DNA of 41,366 nucleotides, from assembly GCA_038063695.1 (NCBI GenBank), contig JBBTUP010000015.1:1-41366 (forward strand), written 5' to 3'. Numbering within the stretch: position 1 is the stretch's first letter; every line of letters begins with the position of its first letter. Below are positions 1 through 35,943 of the stretch, in pieces. The DNA comes from Patescibacteria group bacterium (GTDB taxonomy: Bacteria; Patescibacteriota; Minisyncoccia; UBA9983). The notes below the pieces were generated by a model. The model made no database searches, was not told the DNA's origin, and was given only the letters and a program-made list of their open reading frames with translations. The translations under genes were made by a program, and so were the position numbers.

Positions 1-41
1 TCACATAAATAATACAGCATAGTTTAATTTTAAGCAAATCA

Positions 42-72
42 CCCCACTTAGAAGCCTTGCTTCTAAGTGGGG
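42..72. repeat. REP-1 hairpin upstream of RAYT-1 (stem CCCCACTTAGAAGC, loop CTT, stem GCTTCTAAGTGGGG)
   Basis: Perfect 14-bp inverted repeat read directly. It ends 4 nt before the TGATAAAAT -10 element of the RAYT-1 gene. Confidence 0.9.
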
Positions 73-75
73 TTT

Positions 76-84
76 TGATAAAAT
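76..84 (+). promoter_or_regulatory. Extended -10 (TGATAAAAT) of RAYT-1, 7 nt before the ATG; leaderless design
   Basis: TGnTAAAAT-like motif with no Shine-Dalgarno. The same GATAAAAT-N6/7-ATG arrangement occurs at all three RAYT genes. Confidence 0.5.
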
Positions 85-91
85 TTAAAAC

Positions 92-733
92 ATGGCCGTG
101 AGAAAAACTAAATTTGTTAATAATTATTTCTATCATATTTTTAATCGGGGAACAGATAAACGTGATATATTTCTAGATCATAATGATATTTCGAGGTTTT
201 TTCAGAGTATGAATGAATTTAATGTTATTGATCCTATAGGGAGTATTTATCAGAATTCTTTTAACTTACTTAGAAGCAAGGCTTCTAAGGATAAAAAATT
301 AGTTAATTTTGTTTGTTATTGTTTAAATCCAAACCATTATCATTTTATTCTTGAGCAAGTTGTTGATAGTGGTATAGAAAAATTTATGCAGCGTTTAGGG
401 ACAGGTTATACGAAGTTTTTTAATCATAAACATAAACGTAGCGGCACCCTTTTTCAAGGAAAATTTAAAGCTGTTCTTATAGATTCAAATGAATTTTTAT
501 TACATGTCAGTGCTTATGTAAATTTAAATGATAAAGTCCATCAACTTAGGAGTCTTAATTCTAAGTCGAGTTGGGATGAATATATTAAAAATAATTACAA
601 TAATTATAATTTTTGTAAAAAAGATGTTATCTTAGATCAATTTAACAACAGGGAAGAGTATAAAAAATTTGCAGAAGAATCATTGAAAGATATTATAGAA
701 AGAAAGGAAATGGAGAAATTTTTATTGGAGTAA
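92..733 (+). CDS. REP-associated tyrosine transposase (RAYT) / IS200-like HUH Y1 transposase family protein, copy 1
   Basis: HUH motif NPNHYHFIL, Tyr motif GTGYTKFFN, then GTLFQGKFK. Flanked on both sides by REP-1 hairpins. Confidence 0.8.
   Translation: MAVRKTKFVNNYFYHIFNRGTDKRDIFLDHNDISRFFQSMNEFNVIDPIGSIYQNSFNLLRSKASKDKKLVNFVCYCLNPNHYHFILEQVVDSGIEKFMQRLGTGYTKFFNHKHKRSGTLFQGKFKAVLIDSNEFLLHVSAYVNLNDKVHQLRSLNSKSSWDEYIKNNYNNYNFCKKDVILDQFNNREEYKKFAEESLKDIIERKEMEKFLLE
269..289. repeat. REP-1 core hairpin (CTTAGAAGC-AAG-GCTTCTAAG) inside the RAYT-1 coding sequence
   Basis: Perfect 9-bp stem, same core as 42..72 and 738..762. Read in frame as LRSKASK. Confidence 0.85.
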
Positions 734-737
734 ATTC

Positions 738-762
738 CACTTAGAAGCAAGGCTTCTAAGTG
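738..762. repeat. REP-1 hairpin downstream of RAYT-1 (CACTTAGAAGC-AAG-GCTTCTAAGTG)
   Basis: Perfect 11-bp stem. The loop AAG is the complement of the upstream copy's loop CTT, so the two flanking copies are in inverted orientation. Confidence 0.9.
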
Positions 763-808
763 TTTATAATAGAAACTGCTACAGGAAATGGGTTAAAGGA
801 GAGATAAG

Positions 809-838
809 AAGGGTCTAAATGGCCCTTTTCTTTTTTTT
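809..838 (+). terminator. Rho-independent terminator after RAYT-1
   Basis: Stem AAGGGTC/GGCCCTT (one G-U pair), loop TAAAT, followed by TTCTTTTTTTT. Confidence 0.6.
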
Positions 839-847
839 ATATGATTA

Positions 848-853
848 TATAAT
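848..853 (+). promoter_or_regulatory. TATAAT -10 box 6 nt before the pth ATG (leaderless design)
   Basis: Exact TATAAT, no SD between it and the start codon. Confidence 0.45.
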
Positions 854-859
854 ATTTTT

Positions 860-1444
860 ATGTATTACATCATAGGGCTTGGGAATCCGGGAGGGGAGTA
901 CAAAATAAGCCGGCATAATACAGGCCGGATTGTTGTTGAGAATTTTAATAAAAAGGAAGAAATCGGCGATTTTGAATTAAATAAAAAATTAAATGCCCTT
1001 ATTGCCTCTGGTAAAGCAGGCAAGGAGAATGTGGAATTGATAATGCCTGAGACATATATGAATAAATCCGGCTTAAGTTTGAGATCACTGATAACTAATA
1101 AAAAGAGAACACAGAATTTAATAGTTATCCATGATGATATTGATTTGCCTTTGGGCAAATTCAAAATATCTTTTGCCAGAGGATCAGGCGGGCACAAGGG
1201 AGTGGAGTCGGTGATAAAGAATATTAAAACCCAGGATTTTATAAGAATCCGGGTAGGTATTTCTCCAAGTACGCCTTCTGGCAAGTTAAAGAAACCAGAA
1301 GGTAAAAAAATGGTGGATTTTATAATCGGCAACTTTAAGCCAAAAGAAATTCAGGTATTAAAAAAGGTTTCCAATAAGATTTCTCAAGCCTTGAGAGTGA
1401 TTATTGACGAGGGCTTAAGCAAGGCAATGAGCCTTTTTAATTAG
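860..1444 (+). CDS. pth: Peptidyl-tRNA hydrolase
   Basis: IIGLGNPGGEYKISRHNTG and HDDIDLPLGKFK motifs typical of Pth; 194 aa. Confidence 0.9.
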   Translation: MYYIIGLGNPGGEYKISRHNTGRIVVENFNKKEEIGDFELNKKLNALIASGKAGKENVELIMPETYMNKSGLSLRSLITNKKRTQNLIVIHDDIDLPLGKFKISFARGSGGHKGVESVIKNIKTQDFIRIRVGISPSTPSGKLKKPEGKKMVDFIIGNFKPKEIQVLKKVSNKISQALRVIIDEGLSKAMSLFN

Positions 1445-2550
1445 GAATTTTTTCCTTCTTCAAGATAATTAAGAGTCAATTTATGTTCTTTTGGTTCAAA
1501 TATCACTATTTGGAATGGATAAGATTTTCCAAGTTCTAATTTTTTTCTCATTTCATCTTCTGTTTTAAATTCTGAGATGTGCACAAGTCCGGCAACGCCT
1601 TCTTCTATACTTATCAGTGCTCCGTGTTTATTGAATTTTATAACAACCCCCTTTACTATGTCTCCCTTTTTATATTTTTCAGAAACAGTAGACCACGGGT
1701 CTGGCTTTAAAGATTTAACAGATAAGGATATTTTATTGTCCTTTATATTTATAATTTGAGTTTGTATTTTCTGTCCGATTTTAAAAAGATCTCCCGGGTT
1801 TTCAACAAGCGACCAGTCTAATTCAGAAATATGCACAAGACCCTCCAGCCTCTCTTCAATCTTCACGAAGATGCCAAAATCAACTAGTCCTGTCACCTCG
1901 CACTCTAAAATGTCTCCGACTTTATATTTTGACAAGATACTTTTGATTTCTTCTGAAGCAGATTCTTTTTCAGAGAAAATAAGTTTTTTCTCTTTAGGAT
2001 TGCTGGAAATAATGATTACAGAAACTTTTCCTCCTACAAGTTTTTTTAATTCATCCAAAATTTTATCCTTATCGCCATCCTCTATTCTTGGGTAATGGTC
2101 TATTTTCAATTGAGAGGCAGGAAGAAATCCCTGGATCCCTTTGTATTCTAAAATCAAGCCTCCTTTATTTGCGTCAAAGATGAGAAGATTTAATATAGTT
2201 CCTTTTTTCTGGTCTTCCTCTATTTCTGTCCAGACTATGTCCTGCTTTGCCTCTTTAAGGGAGAGACTTACATATCCTTGTTCATTTTGCAGTTCCACCA
2301 CTTTTGCGGTTATGATATCTTCTGGCTTAAGAAGTTTGATAATATCTTTGGCATTATTAAATTCTTTGCCGTATATTATACCTGTTCCAAAGGGCTTTAA
2401 ATCAACATAAAGGTTTGATTTTTTTTGTTCAATAACCGTGCCCTCTACTAAGTCGTCAACTTTAGGAACATTGATTGGAGTATTCCTAATCAATAAATCC
2501 ATTAAGCTGGATTTTATTATAACTTGCTCTTTTTCCTTATTTTTCAGCAT
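1441..2550 (-). CDS. S1 RNA-binding domain protein (ribosomal protein S1-like, about 4 S1 repeats)
   Basis: Repeated G.V..V..FG.FV.....EGL.H.SE-type S1 motifs (GLVDFGIFVKIEERLEGLVHISEL, HGALISIEEGVAGLVHISEF). Its stop overlaps the pth stop convergently. Confidence 0.8.
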   Translation of the reverse strand: MLKNKEKEQVIIKSSLMDLLIRNTPINVPKVDDLVEGTVIEQKKSNLYVDLKPFGTGIIYGKEFNNAKDIIKLLKPEDIITAKVVELQNEQGYVSLSLKEAKQDIVWTEIEEDQKKGTILNLLIFDANKGGLILEYKGIQGFLPASQLKIDHYPRIEDGDKDKILDELKKLVGGKVSVIIISSNPKEKKLIFSEKESASEEIKSILSKYKVGDILECEVTGLVDFGIFVKIEERLEGLVHISELDWSLVENPGDLFKIGQKIQTQIINIKDNKISLSVKSLKPDPWSTVSEKYKKGDIVKGVVIKFNKHGALISIEEGVAGLVHISEFKTEDEMRKKLELGKSYPFQIVIFEPKEHKLTLNYLEEGKNS

Positions 2551-2591
2551 ATTTTATAAGTATATTGATAATTTCCTTTTTTGCAAGCATT

Positions 2592-2614
2592 TGTTCGACA
2601 TTGAATGTTGAACA
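2592..2614. repeat. REP-2 hairpin upstream of RAYT-2 (TGTTCGACATT-G-AATGTTGAACA)
   Basis: 11-bp stem with one G-T position. It lies 9 nt upstream of the TAAAAT -10 of RAYT-2. Confidence 0.85.
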
Positions 2615-2621
2615 CGAATAG

Positions 2622-2629
2622 GATAAAAT
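2622..2629 (+). promoter_or_regulatory. GATAAAAT -10 element 6 nt before the RAYT-2 ATG
   Basis: Same motif and spacing as at RAYT-1 and RAYT-3. Confidence 0.45.
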
Positions 2630-2635
2630 AAAAAC

Positions 2636-3292
2636 ATGTTAGTGACTGGAGAAATATATCATATTTTAAATAAAGGGACAGAAAATCGGATTATATTTCA
2701 AAATAAACGTGATTATGAACGATTTTTGTTAACGATTTTTGAATGCAATGATATAAATTTGTCGTCTGAAAATAGACATAGAAGATGTAAAAACAAAGAT
2801 TTTAATAAAAACAAAACTCAGCCATTGGCGGAAATTCTTTGTTTTTGTTTGATGCCTAATCATTTTCATATAGTTGCAAGGCAACTGGTTGATAATGGAA
2901 TTTCTAAATTTATGCAACGCTTAGGGAATAGTTATACTAAATATTTTAATATTAAAAATAATCGCAAGGGATCTCTTTTTATGGCGCGATATAAAAATGT
3001 TCATGTTAATAATGATTCGCAAGTTAAACATTTAATTGCTTATGTTCACGCAAACCCTCTTGATTTATCTATGCCTGAATGGAGATTAGGAAAGATAAGG
3101 GATTTTGAAAAAGCCAGAGATTTTCTTGAGAACTATAATTGGTCTAGTTATGTTTTTTATAGTCGAGGCGAAGCATCGGATTTAGTATCGCAGATTTTGA
3201 ATAAAGGTGCGCTTAATGATTTTTATTCTGAAAAAGAAGATTATTTTTATACTATTAAATCTTGGTCAGGTAGATATTTTGAGGATATTTGA
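2636..3292 (+). CDS. RAYT / IS200-like HUH Y1 transposase family protein, copy 2
   Basis: HUH MPNHFHIVA, Tyr motif GNSYTKYFN, GSLFMARYK. Flanked by REP-2 hairpins. Confidence 0.8.
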   Translation: MLVTGEIYHILNKGTENRIIFQNKRDYERFLLTIFECNDINLSSENRHRRCKNKDFNKNKTQPLAEILCFCLMPNHFHIVARQLVDNGISKFMQRLGNSYTKYFNIKNNRKGSLFMARYKNVHVNNDSQVKHLIAYVHANPLDLSMPEWRLGKIRDFEKARDFLENYNWSSYVFYSRGEASDLVSQILNKGALNDFYSEKEDYFYTIKSWSGRYFEDI

Positions 3293-3296
3293 AACC

Positions 3297-3329
3297 TGTT
3301 CAACATTGAATGTTGAACAATGTTGAACA
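3297..3329. repeat. REP-2 hairpin downstream of RAYT-2 plus an extra half-site (TGTTCAACATT-G-AATGTTGAACA + ATGTTGAACA)
   Basis: Perfect 11-bp stem immediately after the stop codon, followed by a tandem repeat of the right arm. Confidence 0.9.
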
Positions 3330-3332
3330 TTT

Positions 3333-3366
3333 TTGCAAATTGCTATTTTTTTTGCTATAATATAAT
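3333..3366 (+). promoter_or_regulatory. Sigma70-like promoter (TTGCAA-17-TATAAT, second overlapping TATAAT) 6-11 nt before the ATG at 3373
   Basis: Motifs read directly; no SD. Confidence 0.45.
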
Positions 3367-3372
3367 TATCTT

Positions 3373-4032
3373 ATGGTTATCACTTATTATGGAATTTCGT
3401 GCTTTAAAATACAGTCTGGAGAGACTGTTTTGGTTTTTGACCCGCCATCTAAGGATTTTCCTGCTTCGGATTTCGGCCTTAAAATCCCGCGCTTTCAGAC
3501 AGATATTGTTTTAATCAGCCACAATCAGCATAAAGACCACAATGGCTATGAAACTCTTCCTGGCAAGGGTGATTCTGAATATCCCTTTATTATAGATGGT
3601 CCAGGCGATTATGAGATTCAGAAAATTTCTATAAAAGGCGTAAAATCATTTCATGATTCTGAATCAGGAGAGAAATTGGGTATGAATACTATTTATGTTG
3701 TTGAAGTTGAAGGGATCAGGATTTGCCATATGGGAGATTTTGGCGAGAAAAATTTAATCAGCCAGACAAAAGAATTTTTAAGAGAAATAGATATTTTATT
3801 TATGCCTATTTTAGGGCCTAGTATGGACCCTCAAATGGCCGCGCAAATAGCAACGCAGATAGAAGCCAAGATAATCATACCGATGCATTATCATAAAGAT
3901 AAAAAAGCGCTTAAAAAATTTTTGGATGAATTTGGAAACGGTGAAAACAAGCCGGTTGAGAAACTAACCTTAAAGAAAAAAGACATTGCTGACAAAAAAG
4001 GAGAAGCTATAATTTTAACACCATGTCTTTAA
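3373..4032 (+). CDS. MBL-fold metallo-hydrolase (UPF0173-like)
   Basis: N-terminal ITYYGISCFKI, histidine cluster ISHNQHKDHNG, C-terminal PMHY; 219 aa. Confidence 0.65.
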   Translation: MVITYYGISCFKIQSGETVLVFDPPSKDFPASDFGLKIPRFQTDIVLISHNQHKDHNGYETLPGKGDSEYPFIIDGPGDYEIQKISIKGVKSFHDSESGEKLGMNTIYVVEVEGIRICHMGDFGEKNLISQTKEFLREIDILFMPILGPSMDPQMAAQIATQIEAKIIIPMHYHKDKKALKKFLDEFGNGENKPVEKLTLKKKDIADKKGEAIILTPCL

Positions 4033-4295
4033 TGGATAAAATAGAAAATTTGCGTAAAAAACCAGAACTCGTTCGCTATAGAGTTTTGATGATAAGTTTG
4101 ATTATAATGATGTCTGTTATAATATTTTTTTGGATTACGTTTTTTAAATATTCTTTAAAAAATTCTAATATCACAGATAAAGATGATTCATTAGGGCCAT
4201 TAAAGACAATTTCAGGAATGATGAGCGATTTTTCCAGGGTCTTTAAAGATAATTTTTCCAAAGTGAAGGAAAATATAGAGAATATTCAAAAATAA
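4023..4295 (+). CDS. Small membrane protein, unknown function
   Basis: One hydrophobic helix (YRVLMISLIIMMSVIIFFWITFF). Overlaps the upstream stop by 10 nt and is tightly packed before gyrA. Confidence 0.5.
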   Translation: MSLMDKIENLRKKPELVRYRVLMISLIIMMSVIIFFWITFFKYSLKNSNITDKDDSLGPLKTISGMMSDFSRVFKDNFSKVKENIENIQK

Positions 4296-4304
4296 ATTAT
4301 AAAT

Positions 4305-6782
4305 ATGGATAAAAATGATAAAGAAAAAAAAATACTTCCAATAAACATTTCTTCAGAAATGGAAAAATCATATTTGGACTATGCGATGTCTGTTATTGTG
4401 AGTCGCGCCCTACCTGATATCAGAGATGGCCTAAAACCGGTGCATAGGAGAATACTTTACACAATGCATGAGGTTGGGCTTAATCATTCCGCAAAATTTA
4501 AAAAATCAGCGGCTGTTGTAGGTGATGCTTTAAGCAAATATCATCCGCATGGCGACATTGCTTTATATGACGCAATGGCGAGAATGGCTCAAGATTTTTT
4601 AATGCGCTATCCTTTAGTTGATGGTCAAGGAAACTGGGGTTCTATAGACGGAGATTCGCCTGCTGCTTATCGTTATACAGAAGCAAGAATGACAGCCATG
4701 GCCGATGAAATGCTTAAAGATATTAATAAAGATACTGTTGATTTTAGGCCTAATTATGACAATAGATTAAAGGAGCCGATAGTTTTACCAAGCGCTATAC
4801 CTCAGCTTTTGGTAAATGGGTGTATGGGTATTGCCGTGGGTATGGCTACTAATATTCCTCCGCACAATCTTTCCGAAGTTGTTGATGCTACTATTTATTT
4901 TGCAGATAATCCTAAGGCAACCACAGAGGAATTAATGAAATTTATAAAAGGCCCTGATTTTCCTACGGGCGGGCTTATTTTCAATCCCAAAGACATTCAT
5001 CATGCGTACGCTTCAGGTCGTGGAGGTATAGTGACGCGAGGTGAGGCGGAGATTACAGAGTCAGGCAAGGGCGCTTTCCAAATAATAATTTCTTCTATAC
5101 CTTATCAAGTTAATAAATCAGAATTAATTATAAAAATGGCTGAATTAGTTAACGAGAAAAGACTGGAAGGTATAAGAGATATAAGAGACGAATCAAGCCG
5201 GGAAGGAATAAGGATTGTTGTTGAATTAAAATTAGGAATTAATCCCCAAAAAGTTTTGAATAATTTATACAGGCATATTGACCTTGAGAAAATGTATCAC
5301 TTCAATATGCTTGCCCTGGTGGATGGCGGCACTCAGCCGCAGATTCTTACTCTGAAAATGATACTGGACGAATTTATAAAACACAGGAAAATTATAGTGG
5401 AAAGAAGGGCAAAATTTGATCTGGCCAGAGCTCAAGATAGAGCCCATATCCTTGAAGGACTAAAAAGGGCCTTAGATCGCATAGACGCGGTAATCAAGAT
5501 AATAAAATCATCCAAAGATAAAGAAGCCGCACATGTTAAATTAAGAGAGAAATTTAAATTCACAGACAGACAGACAGAAGCCATTCTCGAAATGAAACTT
5601 CAGACTTTGGCTGGATTAGAAAGGCAAAAAATAGAGGATGAGTTAAAAGAAAAACAAAAATTGATAAAAGATCTTCAGGCCTTGCTTAATGACCCCAAGA
5701 AGATTCTTAAGGTTGTAAAAGACGAATTGACGGAAATTAAAGATAAATATGGCGACGAGCGTAAAACTAAAATAGTGGAGCATATGGCAAAGATAATGTC
5801 TGTTGAAGATCTGGTCCCAGAAAAAGAATCCGTCCTGGTTATTACGAAGGGCGGTTATGTCAAGCGTTCTGACCCATCTTTTTACAAATCACAAAAAAGG
5901 GGCGGAATAGGTGTTATTGATATGAGTACGAAAGACGAGGATTTTGTAACGATTTTTTTAACTGCCAATACTCATGATGATCTGCTTTTCTTTACAGATA
6001 AAGGCAAAGTCTATCAAACAAAGATGTTTGAGATACCGGAAGGCAAACGCGCAAGCAAGGGTAAATCAATTGTTAATTTTCTTTCGCTTTCCTCAGAAGA
6101 AAGAGTAACTTCAGTGCTTGTGATACCTAAGAACTTAGAAGCAAGGCTTCCACTTGGAAGCCTTGCTTCTAAGGAGACAATAGGTTTGATAATGGTTACT
6201 AAGAACGGTATAATTAAGAAAGTAGCACTTTCAAGTTTTAAAGACGTAAGAAGTAGTGGTATTATTGCTATAAGATTAAGCAAGGGAGATGAATTAATGT
6301 GGGCAAGCATTGTTTCAAAAGGAGACGATGTTATTTTGATCACAAAACAAGGACAGTCAATTCGTTTTAAGGAATCAGACGCGAGAATTATGGGAAGAAC
6401 TGCAGCAGGAGTTAGGGCCATAAGATTGAAAAAGAATGATGAATTGATAGGTACCGGAGCAATAAAGAAAAGCGAGAAAACATTATCTCTTTTGACAATG
6501 AGCAAGAATGGTTTTGGAAAGAAAACTGATATTAAAAATTATCGTCTGCAAAAAAGAGGGGGCTCTGGCATAAAGACATCAAAAATTACAAGTAAGACAG
6601 GCGAACTGATAGCAGCATATATTATTAATCCTGAATTTGAAGAGATAATCGCTATATCAAAAAAAGGTCAGGTTATAAGAACTTCTCTTTCAGGTATTCC
6701 AATGCTTGGTAGGCAGACCCAGGGAGTGCGAATTATGAAACTTAAACCAGGAGATAGTATCGCGTCGCTTACTTGTTTGTAG
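4305..6782 (+). CDS. gyrA: DNA gyrase subunit A
   Basis: [30 protein letters not shown], active-site [10 protein letters not shown] and C-terminal beta-pinwheel repeats; 825 aa. Carries the in-frame palindrome at 6134..6173. Confidence 0.97.
6134..6173. repeat. REP-1-derived doublet palindrome (CTTAGAAGCAAGGCTTCCA-CT-TGGAAGCCTTGCTTCTAAG) in frame inside gyrA
   Basis: Perfect 19-bp arms with a 2-nt spacer. Each arm contains the REP-1 core GAAGC-AAG-GCTTC. Translated as [13 protein letters not shown] with no stop or frameshift. Confidence 0.9.
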
Positions 6783-6795
6783 TAAAATTGTTAGT

Positions 6796-6819
6796 TGTTA
6801 GCCACTGAGTGGCGCACAT
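6796..6819. repeat. REP-3 element (TGTTAGCCACTGAGTGGCGCACAT, hairpin GCCAC-TGA-GTGGC)
   Basis: Near-identical (22/24) to 7506..7529 in the same orientation. Overlaps the last codons and the stop of RAYT-3. Confidence 0.85.
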
Positions 6820-7475
6820 TTAGATGTATATTCTGGAAGCCAGTCTTTTAATGCTGTTTCTAATTCGTTTTTATCTTTATAAATTTCATCTATAAAATCT
6901 CGGCTAACAAACGGCATTTGATCTGTATTTAAATATTCTCTTAAACTTGACCAAGGATAATTTCGAAGAAAATTTATCGCGTCTTTTTTATTTTTCACTC
7001 CTTTTTCTTTCCAGTACTTTTCGGAACTTAAAAGTTCAAGAGAATTTAAATGTATATAGAGAGGCAAATAAAGTCTATAAGTATCGTTATCCACATGAGA
7101 TATTTTATACGATCCTTGAAACAGGTTGCCGTTTCGCGAGTTGATTTTATTGAAATAATGCGAATAACCCATTTCGTTTTTGTGCATAAGGCGTGCAATG
7201 CCATTTTCAATAAGTGGTTCAAGGAGTAGATGAAAATGATTTGGAAGCAAACAAAAAGCATGTATCTTTACAAGTGGGTCATCGGGAATTTTTTTACAAG
7301 CAGATTTAATATTATAGCGTGATAGATTACTGATAGGTTGTCGTTGAGTATTAAAAAGAATTAAATTAACAATAAATCTTTCATAATTTTTCTTATCCAA
7401 AAATATAGAACGTTTGTCTGTCCCACGATTAAAGACATGATAAAGTTCGTTATTTGTTGGTGTAAATTTTCTCAT
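6798..7475 (-). CDS. RAYT / IS200-like HUH Y1 transposase family protein, copy 3
   Basis: HUH LPNHFHLLL, Tyr motif EMGYSHYFN, GNLFQGSYK. Bracketed by REP-3 copies. Confidence 0.8.
   Translation of the reverse strand: MRKFTPTNNELYHVFNRGTDKRSIFLDKKNYERFIVNLILFNTQRQPISNLSRYNIKSACKKIPDDPLVKIHAFCLLPNHFHLLLEPLIENGIARLMHKNEMGYSHYFNKINSRNGNLFQGSYKISHVDNDTYRLYLPLYIHLNSLELLSSEKYWKEKGVKNKKDAINFLRNYPWSSLREYLNTDQMPFVSRDFIDEIYKDKNELETALKDWLPEYTSKCAPLSG
7087..7095 (+). promoter_or_regulatory. Perfect DnaA-box 9-mer TTATCCACA (inside the RAYT-3 CDS)
   Basis: Exact consensus match only. Confidence 0.25.
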
Positions 7476-7481
7476 ATTAAT

Positions 7482-7490
7482 ATTTTATCA
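7482..7490 (-). promoter_or_regulatory. Extended -10 TGATAAAAT 6 nt before the RAYT-3 ATG
   Basis: Reverse complement of ATTTTATCA. The REP-3 copy lies over the expected -35 position. Confidence 0.45.
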
Positions 7491-7505
7491 TATTTTGAAT
7501 TAGAA

Positions 7506-7529
7506 TGTTAGCCACTCGGTGGCGCACAT
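7506..7529. repeat. REP-3 element (TGTTAGCCACTCGGTGGCGCACAT) upstream of RAYT-3, followed by CGCACAT-type short repeats
   Basis: Direct copy of 6796..6819. Followed by CCGCACATCTGCATAT, with inverted ATGTGAATGTGG about 25 nt further on. Confidence 0.85.
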
Positions 7530-7581
7530 CCGCACATCTGCATATATAATATATTTAATGTGAATGTGGATTTCTTGGGTG

Positions 7582-7610: not shown

Positions 7611-7617
7611 AAAGTTA

Positions 7618-8157
7618 ATGTTTGTAAGTCCCGAGCAAATAGTAAAAAATTTAGGCATAGAGCCAGGTATGATCGTGGCTGATTTTGGGTCTGGCACTGG
7701 CCATTATACAGTTGAGGCCGCTAAGTTGGTCACAAAGGCGGGCAAAGTTTATTCCATAGATATACAGAAAGAAATGCTCCAGACGTTGAAATCGCGTTGC
7801 GAGATTAATGGTCTAGACAACGTGGAAATCATTTGGGCTGATTTGGAATTGCATGAGGGCACGCGTTTAGGCTCAGGATTAATTGACCTTGTCATAATTT
7901 CAAATATTCTTTTTCAGGTTGATGATAAAAAGGCAGTTGCTAAAGAGGCATATAGAATAATTAAAAATACAGGCAAGGTTGCTATAATAGAATGGGATAT
8001 GACAGAAAGCAAAATTGGCCCGCCTGCCAGCCAAAGGATAAGTTCAAGCGAGGCCGCGAAGATTTTTGAAGAAGCCGATTTCAGTTTTTATAAAAATTTT
8101 GAGACCGGAGACAATCATTACGGATTATTATTTAGAAAATTAGAAAAAAATGAGTAA
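7618..8157 (+). CDS. Class I SAM-dependent methyltransferase
   Basis: Motif I VADFGSGTGHYT, then the DIQ and ISNILF motifs; 179 aa. Confidence 0.8.
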   Translation: MFVSPEQIVKNLGIEPGMIVADFGSGTGHYTVEAAKLVTKAGKVYSIDIQKEMLQTLKSRCEINGLDNVEIIWADLELHEGTRLGSGLIDLVIISNILFQVDDKKAVAKEAYRIIKNTGKVAIIEWDMTESKIGPPASQRISSSEAAKIFEEADFSFYKNFETGDNHYGLLFRKLEKNE

Positions 8158-9471: not shown

Positions 9472-9843
9472 ATGATTATCCACAGCACAAAAAAAATATA
9501 TTTGTCCAAGGCATATATTTGGCTTATTATAAATATAGGATTGGTCATGCCTTTAAAAATCGTAATGGCGCAGTGTCAACCAAACACTATCTGCAATCCA
9601 TTAACAGCCGGTTCGTTTAACGCCCTCATTACTTCCTTGGCGAATATAGCGTTTGCGATTGGTTTTCCAATAGCCATTATGTTTATTTTATGGTCTGGAT
9701 TTTTGTTTGTGAGCGCAAGGGGCAATGAAGAACAAATAAAGACAGCAAAGAAAACTTTTACATGGGCGATTATAGGTACGGCGATTCTGCTTGGCGCCAA
9801 AGTGATCGCGGTTGGCATACAAAATACAATACTCTCGCTATAA
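9472..9843 (+). CDS. TrbC/VirB2-like (type IV secretion-type) pilin family small membrane protein, paralog 1
   Basis: Signal-like N-terminus, then two hydrophobic helices separated by SARGNEEQIKTAKK, the pattern of CPR T4SS-type pilins. Confidence 0.6.
   Translation: MIIHSTKKIYLSKAYIWLIINIGLVMPLKIVMAQCQPNTICNPLTAGSFNALITSLANIAFAIGFPIAIMFILWSGFLFVSARGNEEQIKTAKKTFTWAIIGTAILLGAKVIAVGIQNTILSL
9476..9484 (+). promoter_or_regulatory. Perfect DnaA-box 9-mer TTATCCACA (at the start of pilin paralog 1)
   Basis: Exact consensus match only. Confidence 0.25.
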
Positions 9844-9903
9844 ATTATTGATATGTCTTATTATTAAAAATGGTCGATAAATTTTAAAGAAATTTATTAA
9901 AAT

Positions 9904-10242
9904 ATGCAAAAAATTAAAAAATTAATACCTTTAGGAGCGGCCTTGTTGCCGTTTATTGCTTTTGCGCAGACAACATTTGGAAGTATATTAGGTACTATTA
10001 GTACTCTAGTCAGTACCTTAACGACAATCGCTATGGCCGTGGCTTTCCTTGTTTTTCTCTATGGTGTGATAAGATTTATTACTGCTGGAGGTGATGAGGA
10101 AAAGAGGAAAACCGCAAAAAATTTAATCATATACGGATTAATCGGCCTTTTTGTAATGGTTGCCGTATGGGGATTGGTAGCAGTCCTTGCTAGTACATTT
10201 GGTGTTACTACGGGTGGTACTACAAGTTTGCCAACTATATAA
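9904..10242 (+). CDS. TrbC/VirB2-like pilin family protein, paralog 2
   Basis: Signal peptide ending AFAQ, helix, TAGGDEEKRKTAKN loop, second helix. Confidence 0.65.
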   Translation: MQKIKKLIPLGAALLPFIAFAQTTFGSILGTISTLVSTLTTIAMAVAFLVFLYGVIRFITAGGDEEKRKTAKNLIIYGLIGLFVMVAVWGLVAVLASTFGVTTGGTTSLPTI

Positions 10243-12271: not shown

Positions 12272-12859
12272 TTATAGGTTGTAATGATTTTTTAAAATGA
12301 TTTCGTCTCGAGGGTCTATTTTTTGCGCAATGAAAAAGTGGATATATTTTCTTATATTTAAAATTTCACTTATAAAATCAATTTCATCTTCACATGGGAA
12401 TGGGCATATAAAAACGCTTTTTTGGAGTGGATAAATTTCCATATCGTTTAATTTATTACTTAACGCCTTCCTTCCTTTTCTGTGTTTTTCTGGGATGTCA
12501 AAGGATATGATTCGCCACGAACCGTCCCATTTTTTTGGTCTGGTTATTTTTATATCGTCAAATTTATAAATTAAGACACGTTTTTCTCCGTTCACTGTTA
12601 TTTTAATTATTTCTTTGTCGTCTTTTTCGTAAATTTCAATTAATTTTTGTTTTTGTAGTGTTCGCATTGTTCTTTTTATTCTATACCTGTCTTTTGCGTT
12701 TTTGACGCCGAATAGAGAAAAAACTTGTGGCAGATTAGGCAGGGCAAAACTGGCTATAATCAGCCCGCCTATCGCCAGCCCTTTTAAGATTTCTTTTGCC
12801 AGTTCTCCTTTTTTATAATCATTTCTTATTGATATTTTTTCTTTTGTCATCCTGGTCAT
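12272..12859 (-). CDS. Membrane-anchored PaaX-like regulator (winged-helix plus PaaX C-terminal/Cas2-like fold)
   Basis: TM helix LAIGGLIIASFALPNLPQVF, wHTH-like RTMRTLQKQKLIEIYEKDDK, and WDGSWRIISFDIPEKHRKGRKALSNKLNDMEIYPLQKSVFICP, which matches the PaaX C-domain signature W.G.W..v..D.PE..R..R..L...L...G...LQ.SVw..P. Confidence 0.6.
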   Translation of the reverse strand: MTRMTKEKISIRNDYKKGELAKEILKGLAIGGLIIASFALPNLPQVFSLFGVKNAKDRYRIKRTMRTLQKQKLIEIYEKDDKEIIKITVNGEKRVLIYKFDDIKITRPKKWDGSWRIISFDIPEKHRKGRKALSNKLNDMEIYPLQKSVFICPFPCEDEIDFISEILNIRKYIHFFIAQKIDPRDEIILKNHYNL

Positions 12860-12897
12860 ATTTTAGTTTTATTATAGATATAATTTATAAGTTCATA

Positions 12898-12935
12898 CTA
12901 TCACATATTTAGCCGATCGGCAAGATAGGTGATAG
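12898..12935. promoter_or_regulatory. Palindromic element B (CTATCACATATTTAGCCGATCGGCAAGATAGGTGATAG), operator-like, upstream of the PaaX-like gene
   Basis: Lies 39 nt upstream of the start codon. On the minus strand it contains TTGCCG-17-TAGTAT, a plausible promoter. Confidence 0.5.
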
Positions 12936-12972
12936 TTAATTATTAATTACTATATTTAAATGAATATTTTTA

Positions 12973-13043
12973 TGCGGGCACGGAGAGTCGAACTCCGGTC
13001 TCGTCCTTGGCAAGGACGCATTCTGCCACTAAACTATGCCCGC
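12973..13043 (-). tRNA. tRNA-Gly (GCC)
   Basis: Hand-folded cloverleaf: acceptor GCGGGCA/TGCCCGC, anticodon stem CGTCC/GGACG, loop TTGCCAA, T arm CGGAG-TTCGACT-CTCCG. Confidence 0.9.
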
Positions 13044-13086
13044 GATTATGAAATTATATCATAAACATGGCGTGCCCCGTACAAAA

Positions 13087-13170
13087 TGCTGGGGGGGAGA
13101 TTTGAACTCCCAATCTCTTGCGAGAATCAGGTTCTAAGCCTGACGCGTATGCCAATTCCGCCACCCCAGC
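13087..13170 (-). tRNA. tRNA-Leu (UAG), type II with long variable arm
   Basis: Acceptor GCTGGGG/CCCCAGC, anticodon stem TCAGG/CCTGA, loop CTTAGAA, T arm GGGAG-TTCAAAT-CTCCC. Flanked by 14-nt perfectly complementary sequences. Confidence 0.9.
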
Positions 13171-13184
13171 ATTTTGTACGGGGC

Positions 13185-13355
13185 AAATCTGCCATCTTGC
13201 CCCGTAGTTAAAGCGGATCTTTATACTATGAGGTTCACCACTCGCCCGATTTTTTCCGCCCACCAGGAATCGAACCTGGAACCTTCTCCTTTCCGCCCTA
13301 GGCGGACCAGCCTCGGGATGAAAGAGGGAGATGCCCCGCCCCCTGCCATCGCCTA
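13185..13355 (-). ncRNA. Unassigned GC-rich spacer with tRNA-like fragments (T arm plus acceptor 3' strand; tRNA-Leu 5' fragment)
   Basis: CCAGG-TTCGATT-CCTGG-TGGGCGG at 13256..13279 (minus sense) and GGGCGAGTGGTGAACC at 13232..13247, which copies the 5' end of tRNA-Leu(UAA). I could not fold a complete cloverleaf. Confidence 0.3.
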
Positions 13356-13428
13356 TGCTCCGTGAGGGTCTCGAACCCCCGACCTTCTCCTTAAGAGGGA
13401 GCTGCTCTACCAACTGAGCTAACGGAGC
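13356..13428 (-). tRNA. tRNA-Lys (CUU)
   Basis: Acceptor GCTCCGT/ACGGAGC, D arm GCTC-AGTTGGTA-GAGC, anticodon loop CTCTTAA, T arm GGGGG-TTCGAGA-CCCTC. Confidence 0.85.
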
Positions 13429-13543
13429 GTAGGACATGGCGGGCAGGTCTACCAATTGACCCGTTCGCATCGCTACGCTTAGGCCGCTAGGCGGGGCGAG
13501 ACTATGGGCGGGAAAATGTGCGTGGCCTTCCCTGTACAGGTGG
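13429..13543 (-). ncRNA. Unassigned GC-rich spacer with a D-arm-like motif
   Basis: GGTC-AATTGGTA-GACC (13446..13461, minus sense) and hairpin CCGC-TAG-GCGG. No complete tRNA could be folded. Confidence 0.3.
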
Positions 13544-13626
13544 TGGGCGAGGAGGGAGTCGAACCCTCACCCGCTTACGCGGACAACATTTTAAGTGTTG
13601 CGTGTATACCATTCCACCACTCGCCC
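13544..13626 (-). tRNA. tRNA-Leu (UAA), type II; CCA apparently encoded (13541..13543)
   Basis: Acceptor GGGCGAG/CTCGCCC, anticodon stem CAACA/TGTTG, loop CTTAAAA, T arm GAGGG-TTCGACT-CCCTC. Confidence 0.9.
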
Positions 13627-13694
13627 ACCACCTATACGGGGTGAATATACCAACTTGCTCTTTATATTTTTATCATTTACTATTTTATCTATAA

Positions 13695-13766
13695 GGCCGT
13701 GTAGCCAAGTGGTAAGGCAAGGGTCTGCAAAACCCTTATACGTGGGTTCGATTCCCGCCACGGCCT
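13695..13766 (+). tRNA. tRNA-Cys (GCA)
   Basis: Acceptor GGCCGTG/CACGGCC, anticodon stem AGGGT/ACCCT, loop CTGCAAA, T arm GTGGG-TTCGATT-CCCGC. Confidence 0.9.
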
Positions 13767-14086
13767 CATTTTTTTAAAAGTTCGTCTATCCTAGCTCTGT
13801 TTTTTTCGCCAGTGTCTATCTCAAAATCAAAAGACGGAAGGAATTTAATTTTGAGCCGTGATTTACAATAATTTTTGAAGTCATTTTTTTTCTTTTTTAG
13901 GATATCAATCACTTCCTTTTCTTTATTGTCGGGCATCACGCTTATAAAAATTTTTGCTGATTTTAGGTCTGGTAATATTTGCGCGCGTATTACCGTTATA
14001 AGCGAAGAGGACTCAATTCGCGATCCGATAAATAAGCTTGCTATTTCTTGCAGGAGGGAATTTATTTTTTCCTGCCTTAAGGTCAT
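13766..14086 (-). CDS. rbfA: Ribosome-binding factor A
   Basis: About 105 aa, RQEKINSLLQEIASLFI and the C-terminal FDFEIDTG pattern. Sits directly downstream of infB as in the conserved operon. Confidence 0.85.
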   Translation of the reverse strand: MTLRQEKINSLLQEIASLFIGSRIESSSLITVIRAQILPDLKSAKIFISVMPDNKEKEVIDILKKKKNDFKNYCKSRLKIKFLPSFDFEIDTGEKNRARIDELLKK

Positions 14087-24166: not shown

Positions 24167-27100
24167 TCAGACGGTATTCATCTCTTTCATTTCCTCCACG
24201 ATTATTGACGGTTCGTTGTTGCGTATAGATATTTTTCCTCTTACTCCAATACAATTTCCTTCCCGTATCATATTGCCGTAATCATTCAATTTTCTTGGAA
24301 ATATCACCATCTCAATACTGTCTGTAAAATCCGATAGTTTTATAAAGAGCATGGGTTCGTTCTTTTTTGTCATTACTTTTCTTATTTCTTCTATCATGCC
24401 AGCAGTAACAACAGGTATGTTATTCGGCAGTTTTTTCGCGTCGCTTATTTTTGTTTTTATTTTCTCCATTTTATCCTTAAATTTGTTCAGCGGGTGTCCG
24501 GAAATATACAATCCTAATAATTCTTTTTCCCACATTAATTTTTCTTCCTGTGTGGCTGGTTCTGTTTTTTTGAGATTGAGATTGGGTATGGAGGTCTTAT
24601 CTTGCATAAGAGAGAACAGAGAACTTTGATTTTGTTTTGATTTTACTGCCTGGCGATTATAATCTAGGGCATCGTCTATATTAACAAGTATTTGGTTTCT
24701 TTCTCCTAATGCGTCCATGGCGCCTGATTTTATTAACGCTTCTAAAGATTTTTTATTTAAATTTTTATGCTGGATATGGTCAAGAAAATCAGAGAATGAT
24801 TCAAAAACCCCTTTTCTTTTTCTTTCTTCAATAATCGCTTCGGCAATTTCTGTTCCCAGATTTTTTATAGTACAAAGACCAAAGCGTATTCCCTGCCTGC
24901 CGGCAGGCAGGCCTGCTTCTTCAATATTGACGATTGTAAAATCTCCAAAACTTTCATTTACATCTGGCGGGAGTACAGGCATGTTCATTCTTTTGCATTC
25001 ATTTATTGATACAGCGATTTTTTCCGTGTCACCGGAATCGGAAGTCAAAACTGCTGTCATAAATTCTGCAGGATAATGCGCCTTCATATAGGCGGTTTGA
25101 TACGCCACTTTTGCATAAGAGGCAGCATGCGCTTTATTGAAGCCGTATCCCTTAAAAGGATCAAAAAGTTTCCATAATTCTTCCGCTTTTTCAGGAGTGA
25201 GGTTGCTGTGTTTCTGGCATCCCTCAATAAATATCTTTTCCTGTTTTGCCATTTCAGCGGGTATTTTTTTGCCAATTGCTTTTCGGAATTTATCCACGCT
25301 TTCCCAGTTGTATCCTGCAAGTTCAATGGCAATTAAAAGCACATCCTCTTGATAAGTTACAACGCCATAAGTTTTTTTAAGAATTTTTTCCAAGCGTGGA
25401 TCAAGATAAGCGATCGGTTCTTTGCCATGCTTGCGTTTTATGTAATTTGGAATGTTTGCCATTGGTCCTGGCCTAAAAAGCGCTATCATTGCCATAATGT
25501 CGTTAAAATTACTTGGCTTTAATTCCTTTAGCCATCGCGTCATCCCGCTCCCGCTTAATTGGAAGACGCCGATAGTTTCTCCTTTGGAAAGCAGGTTAAA
25601 AGTTTTTTTATCCTCCAAAGGAAGATTTTCAAGATCAATTTCTTTTTTGTGGATTTTTTTAACAAGGCGGATTGCGTTCCCCAATATAGCCAAATTTTTT
25701 ATACCAAGAAAATCCATCTTTAAAAGGCCCGTATCTTCAACAGCATGCATGTCATATTGAGTGATAATTTTGTCTCCGTTCGGTTCGTGCTGTAGAGGCA
25801 CAAAATCAGTTAGTTTAGTTGGACTTATGACAACTCCTGCTGCATGCACAGAAACATGTCTTGCGCATCCTTCGATTTTTCTCGCCAGATCAATTATCTC
25901 TTTTACTTCATTTTCTGTTTCATACATTTCTCTAAGTTCTGGGGTTATTTTTAAGGCGTTGTTTATTGTCATCGGGAAGCCTTGGGAGCCAAAAGGAATA
26001 AGTTTGGCTATCGTGTCTCCCAAGCTGTAAGGTTTTCCAAGGGCGCGGGTAATGTCTCTTACGGCAACGCGCGCCATCATTGTTCCAAAAGTTCCTATTT
26101 GCGCTACGTGGTCCTCGCCGTATTTTGTTTTTACATAATTTATAATTTCTTCTCTGCGGTCATCAGCAAAATCCATATCTATATCAGGGGGAGAAGGGCG
26201 GTAAGGATTTAAAAATCTTTCAAAGGGCAGTTCGTATTTTATAGGATCAATATTTGTTATGCCTATTAAATATGAAATAAAAGAGCCAGCTGCCGAACCC
26301 CTGGTAGTTGTTATTATTTTGTTTTTTCTTGCCCAATTTATAATATCTGCAACTACCAAAAAGTATGGCGAGTACCCTTTTTCTTTTATAACCTTAAGCT
26401 CGTATTCCATTCTTTTTTCAGCTTCGGGATTTTTTTCTCTATATAATTTTTTATAACCTTCATCTTTTAATTCTTTAAGTTTTTCGTCCGGAGTTTTTTT
26501 GTCCTCTATTTTAAAGATAGGGAAGACCCATTTGCCGAGTTCCAACTCTATATTACACATATCAGCAATTTTTTTGGTATTTTCGATTGCATCTGGAGTA
26601 TCTTTAAAAAATTTTTCCATTTCTTCTCCTGACCGGAAAGAAAAATTCTCGTTTTTCATTGTTAGCCTATTGGCGTCTGTTAGTTTTGCGTTTGTTTGTA
26701 TAGCAATTAGAAGATCTTGAGCCTCGGCATCTTCTGGTTTTATATAATGAACATCTTGAGTGGCAACTAAAGGGATGTTTAATTTTTTGGCGATATTAAT
26801 TAATCCATTTTGTATATTTTCGTAATTTTCTATATTAGGATGATATCCAATTTCTATATAAAAATTTTCTTTGCCGAAAATTTCTTCATATTCCTTTGCG
26901 ATTTCTTCAGCCTTTTTTATTTTTTTATTTTCTATGAGGCGGGACAATTCTCCTGCCATACATGCGGAAAGGCCTATAAGCCCGTCACAATGTTTTTTTA
27001 ATAGCTCCCTGTCTATCCTGGGTTTATAATAAAAACCTTGCAGATAACTTTGAGTAATAAGTTCTATCAAATTTTTGTACCCCCTTTCGTTTTTGGCCAG

Positions 27101-35903: not shown

Positions 35904-35943
35904 AACACTCGGTGTCTCACAATTTTGTGCGACACCGAGTGTT
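35904..35943. repeat. Long near-perfect palindrome AACACTCGGTGTC(T)CACAA-TT-TTGTG(C)GACACCGAGTGTT
   Basis: 18 of 19 positions pair. No clear T-run follows. Lies in the KH-trmD spacer. Confidence 0.8.

Follow-up and report, generated by a model that had tools for sequence, protein, structure and literature searches.

Three RAYT-like genes with private flanking hairpins on a Patescibacteria contig: a probable REP/RAYT-type system

Introduction

Repetitive extragenic palindromes (REPs) and REP-associated tyrosine transposases (RAYTs) form systems that are regarded as long-lived, vertically inherited intragenomic replicators, and nearly all work on them concerns Proteobacteria, apart from some on Cyanobacteria and Bacteroidetes. 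Patescibacteria, or the candidate phyla radiation (CPR), have genomes of ~1 Mb with very little non-coding DNA. Here, we describe three RAYT-like genes on contig JBBTUP010000015.1 of a Patescibacteria group bacterium (assembly GCA_038063695.1), each of which is bracketed by its own hairpin, named REP-1, REP-2 and REP-3 for genes 1, 2 and 3, respectively. The window under analysis is the entire contig of 41,366 bp, and REP copy counts for the source organism cover these 41 kb. The comparison set consisted of 80 loci from species-representative genomes together with orthologue contigs, and individual loci are referred to by L numbers where they need to be told apart. The best locus among the species-representative genomes scanned was 62% identical, and among the metagenome matches listed there was no close relative of the window except probable same-population contigs.

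Genes and hairpins at the locus

The coordinates of the genes, hairpins and direct repeats are collected in Table 1. An earlier note, made from the sequence alone, had reported three open reading frames (ORFs) with an HUH motif and six flanking palindromes. All nine features lie where that note had placed them, and the ORFs do encode Y1 HUH proteins, with the motifs NHYH, NHFH and NHFH in genes 1, 2 and 3 and pairwise protein identities of 34-37%.

Palindromes were counted by pattern searches of the window against shuffled controls. REP-1 gave 5 matches (0.01 expected), REP-2 two (0.00 expected) and REP-3 two (0.00 expected), the two REP-3 copies differing in 2 loop bases only. Chance origin of the flanking pairs is rejected, as no more than 0.01 matches were expected for each palindrome. 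The core of REP-1, CTTAGAAGCnnnGCTTCTAAG, occurs at 47-67 with the loop CTT and at 740-760 with the loop AAG, which agrees with the opposite loop orientation described earlier. The earlier list of REP-1 sites was correct for the two flanking copies and incomplete beyond them, since further copies lie at 269-289, 545-565 (decayed) and 6134-6173. For REP-3, both positions were right, but the copies are direct and not inverted. When folded as single-stranded DNA (ssDNA), the upstream REP-1 copy (41-73) reaches -16.6 kcal/mol (z = -7.6), and the REP-1 copies, the downstream REP-2 copy and two inverted dimers have z-scores of -3.9 to -8.0 relative to shuffles; folding is weaker for the upstream REP-2 and both REP-3 hairpins (z -1.5 to -2.6).

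The window and an independent Joint Genome Institute contig, L001, start within 6 nt of each other, ~40 nt before the REP-1 hairpin (window 1-40, L001 1-34). This shared start hints that a repeat, or a point at which assembly broke off, lies directly upstream in each of them.

Table 1. Positions of the three genes, their hairpins and the associated direct repeats in the window.
Feature	Position	Strand	Remarks
Gene 1	92..733	+	213-aa Y1 HUH protein; HUH at N81-H84, invariant Y142
Gene 2	2636..3292	+	218-aa Y1 HUH protein; NHFH, YVHANP; syntenic in L001 and L205
Gene 3	6798..7475	-	225-aa Y1 HUH protein; NHFH, YIHLNS; same site without the gene in L209
REP-1, upstream of gene 1	41..73		perfect 15-bp stem, loop CTT; ends 18 nt before ATG
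REP-1, internal site A of gene 1	269..289	+	in frame, encodes LRSKASK; loop before HUH strand, low pLDDT
REP-1, internal site B of gene 1	545..565	+	decayed, 4 mismatches; just after catalytic-Tyr helix (predicted)
REP-1, downstream of gene 1	738..762		11-bp stem, loop AAG; inverted relative to upstream copy; z = -6.1
REP-1, inverted dimer in gyrA	6134..6173	+	in frame; 19-bp arms, 100% complementary
REP-2, upstream of gene 2	2592..2614		one mismatch
REP-2, downstream of gene 2	3297..3329		3297-3319 plus extra half arm 3320-3329; z = -3.9
REP-3, 3' end of gene 3	6796..6819		covers last 7 codons and stop of gene 3
REP-3, upstream of gene 3	7506..7529		same orientation as the 6796 copy (direct)
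Inverted dimer of REP-3-like hairpin	35904..35943		intergenic; ACAC-tcg-GTGT then GCACA tail; z = -7.5
Left 9-nt direct repeat, gene 2 unit	2578..2586		TTTTTGCAA; -35-like hexamer for S1 gene
Right 9-nt direct repeat, gene 2 unit	3330..3338		TTTTTGCAA; -35-like hexamer for downstream metallo-beta-lactamase-fold gene
Left duplicated target, gene 3 unit	6769..6782		TTACTTGTTTGTAG; contains gyrA stop codon
Right duplicated target, gene 3 unit	7615..7628		TTAATGTTTGTAAG; contains methyltransferase start codon

Protein family, motifs and fold

The three proteins narrowly exceed the threshold of the Pfam model Y1_Tnp (PF01797; 24.6, 32.2 and 35.0 bits against 23), and this model is matched by all 81 members of the family alignment. 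None of the three matched an NCBIfam IS200 model at E <= 0.01. In the alignment, for which residue numbers of gene 1 are used throughout, C77, L78, N81, H82, H84, N111, G118 and Y142 are invariant and N146 nearly so, with YIHLNP as the family consensus around the tyrosine. Gene 2 carries the full Y-x-x-x-N-P motif (AYVHANP), while genes 1 (AYVNLN) and 3 (LYIHLNS) keep the asparagine, and the proline is replaced by D or S. A search of PDB sequences with the family profile aligned YIHLNP with DY115IYINP of Escherichia coli TnpA_REP (4ER8). Because Y142 is thereby aligned with the catalytic Y115 of that enzyme, Y142 is the predicted catalytic tyrosine, and its earlier assignment to a GYTKFFN-type motif was mistaken.

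The AlphaFold2 model of gene 1 (pLDDT 85.4, pTM 0.84) places the HUH residues on strand 82-89 and Y142 on helix 133-144, with a helical tail. In a Foldseek search with this model, 4ER8 ranked first (E 1e-6), followed by the TnpA proteins of IS608 and ISDra2, and the matches 4ER8, 2VJV and 2XM3 span E 1e-6 to 1.5e-4. The link to solved structures came only via the family profile and the fold search; gene 2 as a single sequence found no match among PDB sequences.

A search with gene 1 yielded more than 2,600 homologues at E <= 1e-5, most of those with a named source being assigned to Patescibacteria or CPR lineages. At E <= 1e-30 the family comprises 1,395 clusters at 50% identity in 1.84 billion representatives. 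Its members are also present in complete or near-complete genomes of Patescibacteria, for example OZ244964.1, JBAZXP010000001.1 and JACPDA010000004.1. Clusters at 90% identity hold 1-5 contigs each, all representing the same locus, and no near-identical proteins were seen in other genomic contexts among the homologues found. No TnpB gene lies next to any of the three genes, the window neighbours being pth, S1, the gene for a metallo-beta-lactamase (MBL)-fold protein, gyrA and a methyltransferase gene, and Pfam detected no C-terminal helix-turn-helix (HTH) domain in the family. The HUH motif, the Y-x-x-x-N(P) motif and a fold closest to 4ER8 support a RAYT-like Y1 HUH identity for the three proteins. 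The genes are thus probably divergent paralogues within a large Patescibacteria family of class-2 Y1 HUH ssDNA endonucleases of the RAYT or TnpA_REP kind.

Conserved layout and a candidate promoter in related loci

The arrangement seen in the window recurs across ~80 related loci, where in most family genes one palindrome of 16 nt or more is common to both flanks. Under a strict definition of matched flanking hairpins (each flank with a perfect stem of 7 bp or more, equal inner stem and equal loop length), 44 of 89 genes pass. The upstream hairpin in relatives typically ends 10-25 nt before the ATG, and the downstream one starts 0-15 nt after the stop codon. Hairpin sequence varies from gene to gene and tracks the protein clade: the gene 1 clade has CACTT(A/G)G...C(T/C)AAGTG with a variable inner stem, and hairpins of the gene 3 clade take the form ATGTGC-stem-loop-stem-TAACA/GCACA. 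Among four loci of the latter clade that were compared, three have a downstream copy that overlaps with the end of the ORF. The earlier claim that each gene has a private palindrome on both sides is therefore upheld by the shuffled controls and by the way in which hairpin type follows protein clade.

In 33 of 81 genes, exactly 6 nt separate the ATG from the end of a TAnnnT hexamer, in front of which TGn is often found. Upstream of genes 1-3 there are TGnTAnnnT-like boxes, for example at 76-84, 2621-2629 and 7482-7490, which end 6-7 nt before the start codon. The sequence and position of this box suggest an extended -10 promoter and probably leaderless mRNA in the family. Each gene would then, in all probability, form a compact and self-contained REPtron-like unit in the order cognate hairpin, extended -10 promoter, ORF and cognate hairpin.

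Alternatively, the palindromes could serve the host in regulation, for example as terminators, operators or promoter elements, around a domesticated gene whose enzyme does not act on them. TTTT follows the upstream REP-1, the downstream REP-1 scores as terminator-like, and the upstream hairpins overlap the region just 5' of the conserved -10 box. Set against this are the identical, gene-specific sequence on both sides of a gene in either orientation, the co-variation of the hairpin with the protein clade, the in-frame copies inside ORFs, where a terminator would be harmful, and a separate and better terminator of gene 1 at 807-829; moreover, the total of promoter-like and terminator-like sites does not exceed that in shuffles. 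Overall, this explanation is considered very improbable. A terminator or promoter role as the main function of the hairpins was rejected on account of the in-frame copies and the separate terminator.

Hairpins within the ORF of the enzyme

Gene 1 contains its own hairpin at two internal sites, A and B. Orthologues carry their own hairpin at the position of site A. Site B, although decayed in the window, is intact in the 91%-identical orthologue in L001 and is a recurrent position in the family. REP-1 occurs at all four places (upstream, two internal and downstream) in L001, and the L002 gene, 67% identical to gene 1 at the protein level, has CACTTGGAAATCCAGTTTCCAAGTG on both flanks and twice within the ORF. 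Across the family, 29 of 31 internal cognate copies map to residues 55-65 or 150-159, that is, before the HUH strand or after the Tyr helix and in both cases outside the HuH-Y interval; the AlphaFold2 model has its lowest internal confidence in these two segments. At least one internal copy is present in 25 of the 44 strictly defined genes, while the pattern search found none in genes 2 and 3 of the window. Loops are uniform, or reverse-complemented, within a locus and differ between loci with identical stems. Of 12 metagenome loci with at least two copies among the matches listed, 11 follow this rule.

Such internal copies could be functional cis elements, serving in auto-regulation, in self-processing or as protected master copies, and could be kept identical by selection. 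Their two fixed positions even across distant clades would fit this, as would their frequent perfect identity to the flanking copies where the hairpins of orthologues differ (L002, L005, L008) and the single reading frame, L-x5-K, of all copies in the gene 1 clade (window, L001, L002, L008, L013). On the other hand, 19 of the 44 strictly defined genes, and likewise genes 2 and 3 of the window, have no internal copy, site B has decayed in the window and not in L001, and the two sites coincide with the loops that the model orders least, which is where tolerated insertions would be expected. A functional role of this kind is possible, though tolerated insertion seems more likely.

The gyrA dimer and the dispersal of hairpins

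Besides the copies at gene 1, REP-1 is present within gyrA as an inverted dimer, which corresponds to a 12-residue insertion in the C-terminal domain of GyrA relative to solved GyrA structures. In L205 and L206, the closest relatives (~90% nucleotide identity), gyrA has only CTTAG-T-TTCTAAA at this place and is 27 nt shorter, so that no more than the outer stem is left. The loops of the dimer are AAG/CTT in the window and GAA/TTC in L209, mutually complementary in each case, and the long palindrome is perfect in both. This pattern suggests replacement or compensatory evolution instead of simple decay. The dimer at 35904-35943 agrees with REP-3 at 15 of 19 positions, and the relaxed REP-3 pattern gave 3 matches in the window against 0.01 expected.

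Hairpins similar to REP-1 were sought in metagenomes with the pattern CTTRGAAGCnnnGCTTCYAAG, which occurred in at least 120 stretches. Among the 150 matches listed, 19 flank a RAYT-like gene, 17 lie within one, 56 lie within other ORFs of at least 150 aa and 58 are intergenic or in a small ORF, so that 114 are neither in nor beside a RAYT-like gene. Nine of ten host ORFs sampled match Pfam, as MnmA (twice), ArgRS, GyrB, LeuRS, GatB, NAD synthase (NadE), TsaD and a bacterial surface Ig-like protein; the tenth had no Pfam match. In several metagenome loci (L126, L128, L131, L178, L086, L110, L154, L185, L190), an extra half unit (…CCAAGtggaagc or gcttccaCTTGG…) lies beside many of the REP-1-like copies. 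Because these half units match the form of the gyrA dimer, overlapping inverted dimers seem to be common, as a mobile form or a stable one. Beyond the gene and the 200 nt on either side of it, cognate hairpins occur at 0.019 per kb in their own locus (~1 per 54 kb), 32-fold more frequently than non-cognate hairpins (0.00058 per kb).

A further in-frame palindrome was observed in dnaE, on the minus strand at 24892-24911. This GC-rich and perfect 20-nt palindrome, CCTGCCTGCCGGCAGGCAGG, falls where the protein has 10 extra residues, EAGLPAGRQG, in comparison with Thermus DnaE. The form (A)CCTGCCTGCCGGCAGGCAGG(T) is present in five more fetched loci (L050, L052, L069, L070 with one variant base, and L191), among which and in the window no cognate gene for it was identified.

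Movement of whole units

Genes 2 and 3 occupy the same places in L205 and L206 as in the window. The Hainich metagenomes H51 and H41 contain relatives of ~90% identity (L206-L208). In L209 (~84% identical), gene 3 is missing from an otherwise collinear site, the target sequence is present once, and the gyrA stop codon overlaps the methyltransferase start codon in TTAACATGTTTATAAGT. Because of this empty site with its single target copy, the gene 3 unit has the appearance of an insert of ~830 bp, accompanied by a duplication of ~14 nt. The 9-nt direct repeat around the gene 2 unit may similarly be a target duplication, but is suggestive only; in the distant relative L210, the spacer between S1 and the MBL-fold gene has no RAYT-like gene. 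Both duplications retain signals of the neighbouring genes, namely the gyrA stop and methyltransferase start codons for gene 3 and the palindromic -35 hexamer TTGCAA of the divergent neighbours for gene 2.

Units of the gene 3 type are found in the slot between lepB and pth in L210 and in that between pth and S1 in L212. More generally, RAYT units of different clades fill different intergenic slots of one lepB-pth-S1 neighbourhood. The occurrence of gene-3-type units in different slots indicates that units move over evolutionary time.

Mobility of this kind raises the alternative that the genes belong to ordinary autonomous insertion sequences of the IS200 type with tnpA only, whose subterminal left and right ends would be the hairpins. 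IS200/IS605 elements insert 3' of a fixed tetra- or pentanucleotide without target duplication, and their core-only protein is ~150 aa. The hairpins that sit tight against both ends of every ORF, the direct REP-3 copies, which resemble IS200/IS605 ends, the presence or absence of the gene 3 unit among close relatives, the different slots in a conserved neighbourhood and the small number of cognate hairpins away from the gene in most loci could all be read in this way. What makes it unlikely is, first, the protein itself: the tyrosine motif is the class-2 signature YxxxN(P) and not the YxxxQ of subclass 1.1 (PMC6006769 Table 1), no IS200 model of NCBIfam is matched, and the 213-225 residues include a C-terminal extension that the ~150-aa IS200 TnpA does not have. 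Second, identity among paralogues of one genome is no higher than 34-37%, near-identical proteins occur at the same locus only, TnpB is not adjacent, solo hairpins lie inside gyrA, LeuRS, GyrB and other genes, and the insertion carries a target duplication, which IS200/IS605 elements do not make. The earlier view that these are not ordinary IS200/IS605 elements is thus sustained by the lack of YxxxQ, of a TnpB neighbour and of near-identical copies, but has to accommodate gene 3 with its hairpins behaving as an inserted unit.

Interpretation

A REP/RAYT-type system is the explanation that we favour, with a probability of roughly 0.7. Each enzyme would process its own hairpin in ssDNA, keep the local copies alike and seed further copies, and the unit as a whole could relocate. 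The fold and motifs of the proteins, the bracketing of each gene, the co-variation of hairpin and gene, the internal and gyrA copies and the presence or absence of the gene 3 unit are observed features of these loci. What we infer is binding, cleavage and the mechanism of copying, all three from TnpA_REP and IS608, and the way in which copies are homogenised. An enzyme that acts as TnpA_REP and IS608 TnpA do would recognise its hairpin in single-stranded form and cut beside it through Y142 with an HUH-bound metal, and the ends would then be rejoined. Hairpin copies, single or as inverted dimers, would be deposited mostly near the gene, and those that survive would include the copies in two insertion-tolerant surface loops of the enzyme's ORF. 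Occasionally a copy may land at a distance, including in frame in loops of housekeeping proteins, as the gyrA dimer may have done here. All copies of one gene would be kept alike, and the entire hairpin-gene-hairpin unit may at times be mobile, as in the case of gene 3.

Several observations weigh against a REP/RAYT-type system. The duplication of ~14 nt at the gene 3 insertion does not fit known Y1 transposition; to our knowledge, no Y1 transposase or known Y1 mechanism produces a target duplication. With 27.1, 52.4 and 27.4 bits, the three proteins fall under the 80-bit cut-off of the NCBIfam equivalog REP_Tyr_transpos (NF047646). The hairpin feet, CACTTAG, TGTTCAAC and ATGTGC/TAACA, contain neither GT[AG]G nor CGTC, one of which forms the foot in canonical REPs. 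The expectation of palindromes elsewhere is borne out for REP-1, by the gyrA copy and the REP-1-like hairpins in metagenomes, but searches with up to 3 mismatches found no further copies of REP-2 in the 41 kb, and those for REP-3, which also used the relaxed pattern, found none except the one REP-3-like dimer. Cognate copies at a distance from the gene are scarce in RAYT-centred loci, none of them lying more than 5 kb away, and because of this, the hairpins of many family members may be mainly element ends and not genome-wide REPs.

A more far-reaching version of the REP/RAYT interpretation is that this RAYT-like family maintains its hairpin in up to four mutually homogenised copies, two at the flanks of the gene and two in frame in its ORF, of which the internal ones are functional, and also writes peptide inserts into essential genes. 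We put this forward tentatively and with considerable doubt. If true, the homogenised copies and flipped loops would be traces left by continuing HUH nicking and repair, and the system would be a REP/RAYT system adapted to life inside coding DNA, in genomes with almost no intergenic space.

Should the favoured REP/RAYT explanation hold, a large family with REP/RAYT logic would pervade Patescibacteria, its hairpins being placed against the gene, in the ORF of the enzyme and in gyrA, gyrB, aminoacyl-tRNA synthetase genes and tsaD. The window would also offer a compact and tractable set of natural enzyme-hairpin pairs, three in 7.5 kb, that suits studies of ssDNA specificity in HUH enzymes. Furthermore, hairpin inserts could cause protein-length variation as well as assembly and annotation artefacts in CPR genomes.

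Other features of the window

Rfam and tRNA scans of the window found only five tRNA genes, at 12973-13767 (Gly-GCC, Leu-TAG, Lys-CTT, Leu-TAA and Cys-GCA), which are unrelated to the REP/RAYT finding and are overlapped by a spurious 138-aa ORF at 13054-13470. Two small membrane ORFs lie at 9472-10242 and 12272-12859, and their counterparts in L206-L208 match the Pfam family T4SS_pilin; the L207 counterpart of the second, a 195-aa ORF, has PaaX_M and faint CRISPR_Cas2 matches. In the spacer between this ORF and tRNA-Gly, at 12897-12936, there is a 20-nt inverted repeat (ACTATCACATATTTAGCCGA / TCGGCAAGATAGGTGATAGT, 85% complementary) that is unrelated to REP-1, REP-2 and REP-3.

Comparison with known systems

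The closest structural match to the family is E. coli TnpA_REP (RAYT, YafM; 4ER8), which forms a REPtron with REPs arranged in bacterial interspersed mosaic elements. The two have in common the Y1 HUH fold, the Y-x-x-x-NP motif, an equivalent of the (W/F)Q motif, cognate flanking hairpins, a low gene copy number and hairpins that also occur away from the gene. Unlike the E. coli system, the family has no GTAG foot, its proteins are ~50 residues longer and score below the NCBIfam equivalog threshold, and its hairpins hug the ORF and have copies inside it, with a dispersal that seems to be much lower in most loci.

The presence of several RAYTs in one genome, with a separate REP family for each, has already been described (PMC6006769 section 12; PMC5581495). 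Pseudomonas fluorescens and Stenotrophomonas maltophilia (PMC3116915, PMC3686654, PMC6006769, PMC5581495) resemble the window in having divergent co-resident RAYTs with private palindromes, and their REP doublets forming hairpins (REPINs) resemble the inverted dimers at 6134-6173 and 35904-35943. These bacteria contain hundreds of intergenic REPINs per family in 6-Mb genomes, in contrast to an ultra-small genome with few detectable copies, three genes in 7.5 kb and another protein subfamily. The earlier statement that three co-resident cognate pairs were undescribed therefore stands in part: no publication linking REP, RAYT or REPIN with CPR or Patescibacteria was found in the literature searched, but multi-RAYT genomes with private REPs are known.

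Two subclasses of TnpAY1 are of particular relevance. In subclass 2.4 (Bertels group 4; Cyanobacteria and Bacteroidetes), REPs occur in frame inside tnpA_REP (PMC6006769), and the present family is similar in that cognate REPs lie within the RAYT ORF, in peripheral loops and with the frame kept. It differs in the position of the internal copies, which here precede HuH (residues 55-65) and follow Y (150-159), and in its motifs, with FQ (LFQG) in place of WQ and YIHLNP in place of YIxNNP. By inspection only, the motifs NH[YF]H, FQ and Y[IV]HLNP, the tail SS and the length of ~220-240 aa agree with subclass 2.1 (Bertels group 1; TIRYT-like), fitting the second motif variant given for it by Quentin et al. 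2018 (PMC6006769). That subclass has been reported to be without nearby REP-like sequences and to have a C-terminal HTH-like domain (PMC6006769), whereas in the present family almost all genes have flanking hairpins and no HTH domain was detected by Pfam.

The TnpA proteins of IS200/IS605 elements (IS608, ISDra2) share the fold, and their elements share hairpins at both ends and evidence of unit movement. Their YxxxQ motif, frequent TnpB partner, multiple identical copies and insertion without target duplication were not seen here. Palindromes in frame within functional genes, often replication genes such as dnaE, are known as intragenic REPs and Rickettsia palindromic elements (PMC3733652). 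They are comparable in being in-frame palindromes whose dimers encode short peptide inserts; they belong to another phylum and have unrelated repeat sequences, and the repeat described here is tied to an adjacent cognate RAYT-like gene.

Multiple RAYTs with their own REPs, REPs within RAYT genes and REPs within replication genes are thus already known elsewhere. What is new is the phylum, the protein subfamily, whose motifs match a subclass reported without REPs, the ORF-hugging hairpins with a non-GTAG foot, the two fixed internal sites outside the HuH-Y interval and the evidence of unit insertion with target duplication. REP-1 lies in frame in its own gene and in gyrA, and the system is therefore best described as a known kind in a new lineage and form.

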